Origin: a virus | Lineage: Duplodnaviria; Heunggongvirae; Uroviricota; Caudoviricetes | DNA: 8,262 bases | Direction: 5' to 3' (one strand) | IMG/VR virus record: IMGVR_UViG_2529292873_000013 | In this document: positions 1 through 8,262 of the stretch, piece after piece | Layout of the letters: each line of letters starts with the position of its first letter | Position numbering within the stretch: the first letter of the stretch is position 1 | The notes under the pieces: model-generated | Seen by the model: only the letters and a program-made list of their open reading frames with translations | Told to the model about the DNA's origin: nothing | The model's database searches: none | Made by a program: the position numbers and the translations under genes

Positions 1-89
1 GTTTTTACTTTTTATTCACTTAGGTTTTACCAGTTTTCAGGATTTCGTGTTATCCGTTGGCAACGTCATTTTTCAGCAAAATATTCTGC

Positions 90-621
90 TTATCTGTCGA
101 TTCCCCAGCACGCCAGCGCGCTCTCCTGGTCACGCCGTGAACCTGACCGTAGCAGTTATTTGAGCGGATACGGCAGTCTCTGCCACCGTCCTTAATCCAC
201 CAGCGAATCGCCTCACAGGCACCTTTTCGATCGCCTGCATTAATTCGTTTATAAAACGTCGACGGGAAGCACTTACCGGGGCCAATGTTGTACGGACAGA
301 ATGACGCGATCCCCGCTTTCTGGGGTTCGGTCAGCGGCACTTGGATGTTTTTCTCCACCCATGCCAGCGCCTTGTCACGTTCGATGGCATTAACCCGGTC
401 GCATTTTTCCTTTGACAGCTTCATGCCAGGAATAACAGGCTTACCATCCACCGGGTGGCACCACGGCAGATGGTCCAGATCCCCGCACCATCACGGTATG
501 CCGTGGTGTGGTTACCTTCCTTTTCATCCAGAAACTGGTCGAGGATTTCAGGCGCAGACGCACCTGCACCAATCAGCGCCAGAACGGCAGCCGACAGGCC
601 GTATCTGATTTTTGCGTTCAT
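90..621 (-). pseudogene. R: SAR endolysin (phage lysozyme R, GH24-type) interrupted by two single-base frameshifts
   Basis: Track ORF 421..621 (MNAKIRYGLSAAVLALIGAGASAPEILDQFLDEKEGNHTTAYRDGAGIWTICRG) is an N-terminal signal-anchor-release domain plus catalytic region. It continues in another frame as track ORF 50..451 (DGKPVIPGMKLSKEKCDRVNAIERDKALAWVEKNIQVPLTEPQKAGIASFCPYNIGPGKCFPSTFYKRINAGDRKGACEAIRWWIKDGGRDCRIRSNNCYGQV). A third frame from about 140 gives SRRDQESALACWGIDR and a TAA at 90..92. Frame changes sit at short homopolymers near 451..452 and 140..141. The spliced length is about 177 aa. Confidence 0.8.
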
Positions 622-671
622 GGATATTTATCAGGGTTTATCGATTTCAAATCCCTGGATATGTTAAGTCT

Positions 672-1016
672 TCAGGCCAGCGGTGGAGTCTTCAGAGAAC
701 CCGTAATTATTCCCGGTAGTTTTCCTCTGTAGGTTATCAACACATCCTGCGCCTCTAAAATTACGGGACGCTTTTCCGGTAACGGACCATCCCCTTCACA
801 TAACCCGGCAGCAACATCCATGAAAAACTGCTTCGCCTGCTTTTTCGCCTCAGCTTCGTAAAACTCCAGCGTGGCACCTTCAGTACGGTCAAGACTAATC
901 GCCACATCTGGCAACAACAGTGACGGATACCCACCAATTTCCAGTGCCACAGTAACAGTAATCTTATCCGGGTAATTATTTATCCCTTTAACAACCAGTT
1001 CGTATTTTTTCTTCAT
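672..1016 (-). CDS. DUF1327-like phage protein (YdfR-like) between holin and endolysin
   Basis: Track ORF 672..1019 starts at a GTG; the adjacent ATG at 1014..1016 gives MKKKYELVVKGINNYPDKITVTVALEIGG.... It sits 4 nt downstream of the holin stop with GGGGAGAG overlapping the holin 3' end. The holin/small ORF/endolysin order matches what I recall for the Qin prophage (essQ-ydfR-rrrQ). The C-terminus is unverified. Confidence 0.55.
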   Translation of the reverse strand: MKKKYELVVKGINNYPDKITVTVALEIGGYPSLLLPDVAISLDRTEGATLEFYEAEAKKQAKQFFMDVAAGLCEGDGPLPEKRPVILEAQDVLITYRGKLPGIITGSLKTPPLA

Positions 1017-1020
1017 CACT

Positions 1021-1236
1021 TTACTCTCCCCGCGCCGCCTTACGCCGGTCTTCTTTAATCTTGAAATACAGGTTCGTCAGATATGTCAGCAGCCCAAACA
1101 GCAGACTCCCCAGCACACCTATCGCCACCCACTGGGACGGAGAGACTTTGTCCAGCAGCTGCAGTAACCAGTATCCCGTCCCCACCGCTGACGTGGTGTA
1201 TGACACACCCGTTGTGATTTTTTCCATCTGGTACAT
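1021..1236 (-). CDS. S: class II holin / pinholin, phage 21 S-family, dual-start motif
   Basis: 71 aa [71 protein letters not shown]. Two Met codons (M1, M4), two hydrophobic segments and a basic C-terminal tail, as in S21-type pinholins and E. coli EssD/EssQ. GGGAGACGGGG lies upstream of the ATG. Confidence 0.9.
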
Positions 1237-1311
1237 ACCCCGTCTCCCGCAATCCGGAAGCTCACAACAACAGGAGGGGCATCAGCTCACACCGACAGCC
1301 CCTGCGTATGG

Positions 1312-1581
1312 TTACATCATCATTTCGCCGCCAGGCTGAGGCTCACTGCTACCGTCAGGCTGAGACACAACGCCATCTGAAACAGCACTGTCACCCGCGC
1401 CGTCTTCAGGCTCAGGAGCAGCCGGTCCCCCCAGCAGCTCATCCAGAATGGCATCCACTTCAGCATCAAGACGCGCCTCAAGATTCTGGCGGAGTTGCTG
1501 TTTCAGTGCGCTTCTGACTTCTTCAGAGCGCAGGACGTCCTTCACTGCTTCAGCAGTGACCAGAGATTTTATTTCTGACAT
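1312..1581 (-). CDS. hypothetical acidic phage protein, 89 aa
   Basis: ATG at 1579..1581 gives MSEIKSLVTAEAVKDVLRSEEVRSALKQQLRQNLEARLDAEVDAILDELL... with an acidic Pro/Gly/Asp-rich tail. The track's longer 1312..1737 form starts at a GTG and overlaps the neighbouring ORF, so I prefer the ATG. The ribosome-binding site is weak. Confidence 0.45.
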   Translation of the reverse strand: MSEIKSLVTAEAVKDVLRSEEVRSALKQQLRQNLEARLDAEVDAILDELLGGPAAPEPEDGAGDSAVSDGVVSQPDGSSEPQPGGEMMM

Positions 1582-1618
1582 GGGATTTTCTCGTTGAAAG
1601 GTGTTGTTAAGAAAGTTG

Positions 1619-1801
1619 CTACGAAATGAGAGGCTCTTCGGGTTTTGTTCCGGCTGACTGGCTGGCGCTGATTTTTTCCGCCGCCGCGGCATCAATCTTT
1701 TTGCGTATATAGTTCCGGATAACCTTATACCCGCCACTTACCAGATATAACGTGCACACCACCGTGCAGAAATACAATAAAATAAGCTGTACAAATCTCA
1801 T
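1619..1801 (-). CDS. small predicted membrane protein, 60 aa
   Basis: MRFVQLILLYFCTVVCTLYLVSGGYKVIRNYIRKKIDAAAAEKISASQSAGTKPEEPLIS: hydrophobic N-terminal half, then a basic/polar tail. Strong Shine-Dalgarno GGGAGGG 4-5 nt upstream of the ATG. Confidence 0.55.
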   Translation of the reverse strand: MRFVQLILLYFCTVVCTLYLVSGGYKVIRNYIRKKIDAAAAEKISASQSAGTKPEEPLIS

Positions 1802-1948
1802 TATCCCTCCCGGTTATTGATATGGTGTTGACATCGTTAATACCTGTTGGTTAAAAAAGTGTCCTGCATGTTTTGCTTTGGATATAACGACATTTGCCGC
1901 CGGTTCTGGCTCCTTGTTTTCCCTGCCCCGGCGGCCTTTTTTTCCTGC

Positions 1949-7815: not shown

Positions 7816-7828
7816 AGCCTGCTTCTCC

Positions 7829-7857
7829 TTGCCTTTCGGCGCGTAAGAGGCTAACCT
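7829..7857 (+). promoter_or_regulatory. putative sok antisense promoter
   Basis: Plus-strand -35 TTGCCT (7829..7834), 17-bp spacer, -10 TAACCT (7852..7857). Same placement and similar hexamers to the plasmid R1 sok promoter as I recall it. Confidence 0.45.
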
Positions 7858-7863
7858 ACGTTT

Positions 7864-7935
7864 GTGAAGCATAGATTGGGCCTCAGATTAATGTTAAGCG
7901 TCTTGCAGGACGCGTAATGTTAACTGGGGCTTTTC
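7864..7935 (+). ncRNA. sok: putative Sok-like antisense RNA, complementary to the hok/mok leader
   Basis: Inferred from the promoter above; transcript would be antisense to the mok-position start at 7872. Downstream stem GTCTGCCT...AGGCAGAC at about 7939..7968. Ends are approximate. Confidence 0.4.
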
Positions 7936-7990
7936 TCTGTCTGCCTTACGGTGGCATGCCCGAGGCAGACAGCCTCAAGCACCCGCAGCA

Positions 7991-8018
7991 ATTCTACTTA
8001 ACTCTCGCTTTACAGCAA
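7991..8018 (-). promoter_or_regulatory. putative hok mRNA promoter
   Basis: Minus-strand -35 TTGCTG (plus 8013..8018), 16-bp spacer, -10 TAGAAT (plus 7991..7996). Predicted 5' end GGGUGCUUGAGGCUGUCUGCCUC resembles the R1 hok mRNA 5' end. Confidence 0.5.
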
Positions 8019-8033
8019 ACCGTTTTGCCCGAT

Positions 8034-8047
8034 ATGGGAATTCCCAT
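8034..8047. repeat. perfect 14-bp palindrome ATGGGAATTCCCAT
   Basis: Read directly from sequence; lies between the stop of the 34-aa ORF and the hok promoter -35. Confidence 0.9.
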
Positions 8048-8058
8048 ACGGAATGAAT

Positions 8059-8163
8059 TCAGTTCCCCAGGCGCTCCATCAAAAACACAACCAGGCAGTA
8101 AACACCCACAACAGCAATAACAGCCAGAGCGCCTTCCATTACCAGTGAAATATCATCCGACAT
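8059..8163 (-). CDS. small hydrophobic protein, 34 aa, strong ribosome-binding site
   Basis: GGGAGGG 4 nt upstream of ATG (8161..8163); MSDDISLVMEGALAVIAVVGVYCLVVFLMERLGN, stop TGA at 8059..8061. Below the track's length cutoff. One predicted transmembrane helix with an acidic N-terminus. Confidence 0.4.
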   Translation of the reverse strand: MSDDISLVMEGALAVIAVVGVYCLVVFLMERLGN

Positions 8164-8262
8164 ATTCCCTCCCTTGGTGTGAATCCCGGCGAACGTTTTT
8201 ACCCCCACCGACAAATAACATATACTAGAAAAGCAATAGCTATAGCAACGCCTGCAAATGCA

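Follow-up and report, generated by a model that had tools for sequence, protein, structure and literature searches.

Are the broken genes of a draft-assembled prophage mutations of the phage or errors of the assembly? This question was raised by an 8,262-nucleotide stretch of DNA (the window) that is held as IMG/VR virus record IMGVR_UViG_2529292873_000013 (Caudoviricetes) and in which the lysozyme (endolysin), rusA and TerB-like genes appeared to be frame-disrupted. A preliminary description, made from the letters alone, had placed all the lesions in mononucleotide runs of 2-5 bases, had judged sequencing error to fit as well as slippage-driven prophage decay, and had called the pseudogenes provisional. 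We found eight one-base deletions in the lysozyme, rusA and DUF968 genes. They were probably (at roughly 0.8) artefacts of the draft assembly, in which collapsed paralogous prophage copies had been blended, and not mutations of the strain. The TerB-family gene was a different case, namely a real pseudogene.

The window was the entire draft contig AETZ01000006.1 of Escherichia coli O157:H- strain H 2687, the reverse complement of which was equal to it. Lambdoid prophages that are nearly identical to each other are numerous in the genome of this strain. Two products of the broken genes were recorded on this contig: the lysozyme fragment of 66 amino acids (aa) as EFX20955.1 and a 112-aa RusA as EFX20963.1. 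As to the sequencing platform, to which the preliminary description had pointed, Table S1 of Nyong et al. 2020 (PMC7175801) listed H2687 as a sorbitol-fermenting O157:NM strain from Scotland (2003), sequenced by 454 only, with a draft of 209+1 contigs and 5,048,194 bp. The assembly was about 0.36-0.46 Mb smaller than those of its relatives in the same table (5.41 Mb for another draft of 493-89 and 5.51 Mb for the closed genome of LSU-61). The same study placed H 2687 and its sister strain 493-89 in clade 9.2.36, and it stressed that drafts of enterohaemorrhagic E. coli (EHEC) were fragmented at their homogeneous lambdoid prophages.

The window covered the late/nin (lysis/nin) region of a lambdoid prophage. 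Every gene was on the minus strand, and the gene order was lysozyme, YdfR, holin, DUF826, DUF1378, SASA esterase, DUF3927, TerB, Q, RusA, DUF968, a 92-aa gene and hokD/sok. Its best full-length relatives were the O157:H7 prophages of CV261 and EDL933, at about 98% identity. CV261 was ruled out as a closed sorbitol-fermenting O157:NM genome, since it was a clade 7, non-sorbitol-fermenting O157:H7 strain. The only closed relative found was LSU61, and its best-matching prophage was a different phage.

Eight deletions in three genes

Alignment of the window with CV261 and EDL933 revealed eleven one-base gaps, a single 7-base gap near the contig end and no one-base insertion. It bore out the view that one-base lesions had affected otherwise conserved genes. 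Eight of the eleven one-base gaps were intragenic, and all eight were deletions (sign test against zero insertions, P=0.008). The genes and sites concerned were the following.

90..621, minus strand: lysozyme (endolysin R), apparently broken by one-base deletions after 140 and 450
140..141: first lysozyme lesion; GAACC in the window, GATACC, GAGACC or GAAACC (T, G or A) in closed-genome alleles
450..451: second lysozyme lesion; CCACCCGGG changed to CCACCGGG on the plus strand (C3 to C2)
5782..6155, minus strand: rusA (Holliday-junction resolvase), one base deleted after 5860 and one after 6151; the gene call starts at a GTG at 6162 and gives 112 aa
6168..7213, minus strand: DUF968 gene (YdfU-like, with an HNH-type C-terminus), four one-base deletions, after 6466, 7131, 7139 and 7166
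7653, 8022 and 8048: intergenic one-base length differences from EDL933 and CV261, common to 493-89; 8022 and 8048 also in LSU61

The double disruption of the endolysin had been recognized correctly. The two deletions left a 66-aa fragment (421-621) and another of about 124-133 aa, which matched the Pfam family Phage_lysozyme over model positions 2-25 and 27-114, respectively. The repaired 177-aa product matched positions 2-125 of 125. The column of the deletion after 140 showed three-way variation among the paralog alleles.

In rusA a single disruption had been described. This lesion existed, but a second one had been overlooked, as had all four deletions in DUF968. The deletion after 5860 put the last ~25 codons of rusA out of frame, and that after 6151 destroyed the frame right behind the ATG, where the upstream GTG start remained usable. 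Repair at both gaps gave a 124-aa RusA that was exactly identical to EFX11515.1 of 493-89 and matched the Pfam model over 1-123 of 124, in comparison to 1-110 for the broken form. The intact RusA of 493-89 (EFX11515.1 / WP_001217440.1; 2111-2485 of AETY01000201.1) was itself present on one contig among ~15 billion proteins. Because of this single occurrence, even the "intact" allele of 493-89 may carry a chimeric pattern of single-nucleotide polymorphisms (SNPs) made by assembly.

In the DUF968 gene, the deletion after 6466 (TTCC or TTTC to TTC) converted a 349-aa gene into a 252-aa open reading frame (ORF) and a 96-aa "YbcO-like" ORF. The suspicion that the YbcO-like ORF might hide an error was therefore justified. 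The same suspicion did not hold for the DUF1327-like ORF and the 92-aa ORF, both of which had the reference length and no lesion. The deletions after 7131, 7139 and 7166 scrambled ~12 codons. The Pfam match covered 1-171 of 171 in the repaired product and 1-76 and 79-171 in the fragments.

The three intergenic gaps were ordinary allelic variants and not lesions, because they were common to 493-89 and in part to LSU61, and because closed genomes matched this region without net length change. Namely, hundreds of closed genomes matched a 703-base segment around hok at 99.1-99.4% in this way. The 7-base gap was located at 55-66, just downstream of the lysozyme stop, and was present against all references; against the O145 allele two gaps, one of 6 bases and one of a single base (CC to C), were an equally valid reading.

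Occurrence of the deletions in other genomes

We compared the lesion sites with a panel of closed-genome alleles from EDL933, CV261, O26 RM10386, O145 RM12761, LSU61, Z1323CEC0014 and 602354, with at least four alleles per segment. The base was present at all eight sites in every allele of the panel. Moreover, contig AETY01000201.1 of the sister strain 493-89 covered positions 781-8262 of the window and retained the base at all six lesion sites within this range. Strain 493-89 had private lesions of its own, with bases deleted at 6686 and 7273 and inserted near 1047 and after 7860, and its DUF968 and holin genes were broken at sites other than those of the window. The window and this contig differed by 33 mismatches and 10 indel columns. 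All these differences were in paralog-variable segments, except three mismatches between TerB and Q (4837-4879) in a 4.7-kb core. At the latter place ACTG stood against AACG and GCGACG against GCGGCG, the window agreed with EDL933, and the site adjoined an A-rich/GC-hairpin terminator-like sequence. On the lysis side the 493-89 contig stopped at 781, inside YdfR. On the hok side both contigs shared their exact terminal base (window 8262 corresponded to position 1 of AETY01000201.1), an indication that the two 454 assemblies stopped at a common repeat boundary.

Exact look-up in a collection of ~15 billion proteins gave a similar picture. The 66-aa lysozyme fragment was recorded in this assembly and in the draft of strain DEC4C only, and the 112-aa RusA in this assembly only, while the intact neighbouring proteins were found on 177 to more than 1000 contigs. 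The other lesion fragments tested in this way had no record, save the 96-aa ORF, which arose from different breaks elsewhere. The repaired lysozyme and six repaired variants of DUF968 also had no exact match in the collection, which fits a chimeric SNP pattern but was not conclusive. Among IMG/VR matches, all 100 at the 6466 site and all 120 returned at the 450 site were ungapped. A search of 5,426 complete E. coli genomes gave no match of at least 99% identity over the lesion segments, the best values being 96.8%, 97.1% and 93.4%. Since no complete genome reached 99% over these segments, the lesions were private to this assembly; nor did this search find a closed genome belonging to the clone of H 2687.

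The 96-aa DUF968 fragment was called on 196 contigs elsewhere, and recurrence of the 6466 lesion was considered as its cause. This was rejected, as the ten places inspected showed other indels, N-gaps and rearrangements. In one complete genome (CP044350.1, locus 746-1791), DUF968 was split into 252 + 96 aa by a change of CCGGAG to CCGAG, 10 bases upstream of the site in the window.

These comparisons bear on the possibility of genuine decay, in which the H 2687 prophage would truly carry slippage deletions and lysozyme, rusA and DUF968 would be true pseudogenes. Decay is a common fate of prophages, and bacterial pseudogenes show a deletion bias. The same contig contained a real pseudogene in TerB, and DUF968 was split by other lesions in other assemblies, one complete genome included. 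However, a heritable lesion should recur in independent high-accuracy assemblies, and those in lysozyme, rusA and DUF968 were absent from seven closed alleles, from 493-89 at six sites and from 220 IMG/VR matches at two. Decay would also have to produce eight private deletions in ~3 kb and none in the adjacent 5 kb, in a strain whose clonal sister lacked the gaps at the six covered sites and carried different lesions. Both recorded lesion products were missing from all other assemblies, bar one in DEC4C. Furthermore, slippage has no reason to favour paralog-variable columns, and the surrounding SNP pattern was that of no natural allele. We thus regard genuine decay of these three genes as very improbable. 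The assembly artefact is preferred because the lesions were private to the assembly, 493-89 kept the bases at the six sites that its contig covered, and repair restored the Pfam matches and the exact RusA of 493-89.

The draft of DEC4C, an O157:H7 strain from the project of Hazen et al. 2012, deserved separate consideration. In its contig AIFM01000036.1 the same base was lost at CCACCCGGG, in a different, EDL-type allele, and a paralog allele with CCCCCCGGG existed in CV261. Other drafts of the Hazen et al. 2012 project were listed as 454 in Table S1 of PMC7175801, so that the platform of DEC4C was presumably 454 as well. We read the DEC4C gap as a recurrence of the same artefact, with a real hotspot as the main residual alternative. 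Within AIFM01000036.1 (1798-4125) other genes were also shortened: YdfR had 108 instead of 114 aa, and the Phage_lysis gene 134 instead of 155 aa. This suggests that artefacts of the same kind were common in the DEC4C assembly.

It is a slim chance, in our estimate, that at least one lesion was real or that the contig was faithful to a prophage of H 2687 alone that was decaying and heavily recombined. The best candidate for a real lesion is the lysozyme CCCGGG, which had lost a base in two unrelated alleles (H 2687 and DEC4C) and could be a genuine hotspot of recurrent slippage. If it were so, the CCCGGG hotspot could inactivate prophage endolysins and lock prophages in. A functional role of the short runs, as slippery on-off switches in phase variation or as sites of programmed frameshifting, was suggested solely by the gapping of CCCGGG in two assemblies. 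On the other hand, the runs were only 2-3 bases long, the gapped forms were absent from 220 viral contigs (at two sites) and from all closed genomes examined, the alternative frame was not conserved, and both gapped assemblies came from 454-era draft projects. Such recoding appears exceedingly improbable.

Homopolymer context and paralog variation

Given the 454 platform, the possibility had to be considered that the locus was single-copy and correctly assembled, with plain homopolymer miscalls as its only fault. In this case short runs would simply have been under-read, and the other prophage copies would not be involved. Against the O157 references, five of the eight lesions were in runs of at least two bases (P=0.29), and 46.4% of the reference bases were in such runs as well. 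The classification hinged on the reference, as the LSU61 and Z1323 alleles turned some lesions into contractions of runs of 2-3. When the most favourable allele was picked for each site, the count rose to seven of eight (P=0.02), which was a weak residual signal. None of the lesions fell in a run of at least five bases. Of the 57 such runs in the window, 55 were the same as in the references and two were in the unalignable contig end. Thus, the placement of all lesions in runs of 2-5 was hardly meaningful, since the homopolymer context was about at chance level. The classic pyrosequencing signature was missing, because such errors grow with run length and yet the long runs were untouched.

Nevertheless, the platform, the fact that all eight lesions were contractions, their description as contractions of runs of 2-3 under the most favourable allele, and the gap at the same C3/G3 site in DEC4C, a second draft from a 454-era project, spoke for plain miscalls. 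With known 454 homopolymer-length errors the window shared the platform, single-base indels read from flow signal, and the possibility of describing most lesions as short-run contractions. It differed from them in the lack of run-length dependence (no excess rising with run length was found, and 0 of the 57 runs of at least five were affected), in the presence of deletions only, and in a location tied to paralog-variable sites. Moreover, the lesions were restricted to the paralog-variable ends, with none in the 5-kb core (P=6e-4), and coincided with paralog-variable columns (P=3e-5). Plain miscalls also left unexplained that the sister strain differed at 33 bases, nearly all in these segments, and that no complete genome had the mix of alleles seen here. 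We consider this explanation unlikely.

The association with paralog variation was much closer. Six of the eight lesions were located exactly on columns that varied in the panel, with 10.7% as the background (P=3.3e-5, or 9e-5 with local densities), and no lesion was more than one column away from a variable column (P=4e-5). The conserved core at 501-5500 contained none of the eight (P=6e-4). Both private deletions of 493-89 were on variable columns too, and its insertion at 7860 consisted of "GA" on a G/A column. Details at single sites fitted a blended consensus as well. At 6466 the natural alleles were TTCC or TTTC and the window had TTC; at 7131 they were G2A2 or G1A3 and the window had G1A2; at 7166 they were AA or CA and the window had A.

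The contig also changed its allele type along its length. It was EDL-like with a 27-base LSU61-like patch near 6151, O26-like at 6640-7027, Z1323-like at 7028-7143 and EDL-like from 7155. The most complex part was the following segment.

7028..7172: allele-switch segment with three types (O26/LSU61-like, Z1323-like and EDL-like), partly alternating site by site; three lesions inside

Within it, at 7130-7172, the window alternated allele types from site to site. The segment 6990-7215 had no more than 93.4% identity to any of 7,875 DUF968 copies in 4,393 complete genomes. Parts of the window were present at 10-14 places per O157 genome, and the hok segment at six places in LSU61. These data point to paralog variation and allele switch points, and not homopolymer length, as the better predictor of lesion location. 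We favour a blended consensus because the lesions coincided with paralog-variable columns and because the contig switched between allele types. Three features expected of such a consensus were found: sequences that were multi-copy in genomes of the lineage, errors at paralog-variable sites, and a fine-scale mixture matching no natural copy.

The blending may have proceeded as follows. Reads of two or three paralogous prophage copies would have been merged into one contig at the lysis and rusA-DUF968-hok modules. Since 454 consensus is built in flow space, as a run length per nucleotide flow, the averaged signal would be fractional where the merged copies differ. With a near-even mix the signal would be rounded down and a base dropped, and occasionally both alternatives would be called. 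The outcome would be gaps of one base on paralog-variable sites or next to them, most of them at allele switch points, with the long invariant homopolymers untouched.

A general version of this scheme, with 50:50 averaging of run lengths and rounding down, was tried by reasoning from the alignments and rejected. It fitted 6466, 7131 and 7166 and over-predicted deletions elsewhere. Because 50:50 averaging would remove a base wherever the copies vary, near-even mixing would be required only at the switch points.

Several observations weigh against the blended consensus. The collapse of paralogs was inferred and not observed, and the allele panel came from other strains and not from the prophages of H 2687 itself. 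Naive 50:50 averaging predicts too many deletions, and most variable sites were resolved cleanly. The lysozyme segment alternated from site to site less obviously than the DUF968 segment, and the substitutions at 167, 233, 269, 562, 7073, 7079 and 7109 were found in the window only and matched no allele of the panel. The comparison strain 493-89 was also a 454 draft of the same study and was no gold standard alone. Finally, the details of the vendor's 454 assembler and of its consensus method entered as general background, and literature support covers flow-space consensus in general only.

Among known phenomena, the window was closest to the collapsed-repeat chimeras in drafts of prophage-rich genomes. 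As in collapsed-repeat consensus sequences of EHEC drafts, the contig ended at repeat boundaries, its modules were multi-copy, alleles switched on a fine scale, errors were confined to paralog-variable segments, and the assembly was ~0.4 Mb below its relatives. The usual symptoms of such collapse are contig breaks and chimeric SNPs, whereas the window additionally had single-base gaps that mimicked frameshift pseudogenes and that we ascribe to the calling of the consensus from flow signals.

The balance between error and decay drawn by the preliminary description has to be shifted. Error was strongly supported for lysozyme, rusA and DUF968, and it was the correct option for all but one of the eight lesion-bearing ORF fragments of concern there, but TerB was real and the homopolymer framing was wrong. 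In old 454 drafts of EHEC, as in those of other prophage-rich genomes, a frameshifted prophage gene should be taken neither for a pseudogene nor for a sign of prophage decay. The warning sign is coincidence with paralog-variable sites and not homopolymer length. Artefactual truncated proteins, such as EFX20955.1 and EFX20963.1, remain in public protein databases. The window contained no new biological feature, and its biological importance was low.

The TerB pseudogene and the intact genes

The TerB-family gene differed from the three genes discussed above.

4365..4726, minus strand: TerB-family pseudogene, in-frame TAG at 4659-4661 (GAG to TAG) and replaced 5' end

A frame disruption at a mononucleotide run had been proposed here, but the lesion was an in-frame substitution together with a replacement of the 5' end, as defined by alignment to the intact 143-aa TerB-like gene of phage PPyecE_EH1910. 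There was no indel relative to EDL933, which showed the identical TAG and replaced 5' end. The same TAG was present in LSU61, sequenced by PacBio plus Illumina, so that this lesion did recur in independent high-accuracy assemblies. The 48-aa C-terminal remnant was found on 802 contigs, closed genomes included, and in CV261, EDL933, O26 and LSU61 the gene was listed by NCBI as a pseudogene containing an internal stop. Thus, TerB is a real pseudogene that was inherited with the prophage, and closed O157 genomes already carry this annotation. In this respect the window resembled the genuine decay of cryptic lambdoid prophage genes, as in the TerB "internal stop" of O157:H7 and O26, since its TerB lesion was as in EDL933. 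The lysozyme, rusA and DUF968 lesions differed from such decay in that they were found in no closed genome and not in the sister strain.

The remaining genes of the window were intact.

672..1019, minus strand: YdfR / DUF1327, 114 aa from the ATG
1021..1236, minus strand: class II holin, 71 aa
1312..1581, minus strand: DUF826 gene, 89 aa
1619..1801, minus strand: DUF1378 gene, 60 aa
1949..3886, minus strand: 645-aa carbohydrate esterase of the SASA family (nanS-p type); the identical protein is very common in O157:H7 prophages
4201..4368, minus strand: DUF3927 gene, 55 aa
4965..5786, minus strand: late antiterminator Q, 273 aa
7215..7493, minus strand: hypothetical gene, 92 aa
7660-7872, minus strand: hokD/mok toxin gene, with a match to the sok antisense RNA family at 7810-7984

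A tRNA scan of the window found no tRNA genes, while the related prophage of LSU61 had tRNA genes between the TerB pseudogene and Q. An Rfam scan of the window found nothing bearing on the lesions. It did return a match to the small RNA family STnc100 (RF02076) at 4027-4193 on the minus strand, with 101.6 bits where the gathering score is 47; this match fell between DUF3927 and the SASA esterase gene. Beside the complete hokD/mok (window 7660-7984, minus strand), the antitoxin RNA family sok (RF01794) was matched over its full length with 116 bits, and this hok/sok allele was common to hundreds of closed genomes at 99.1-99.4%.

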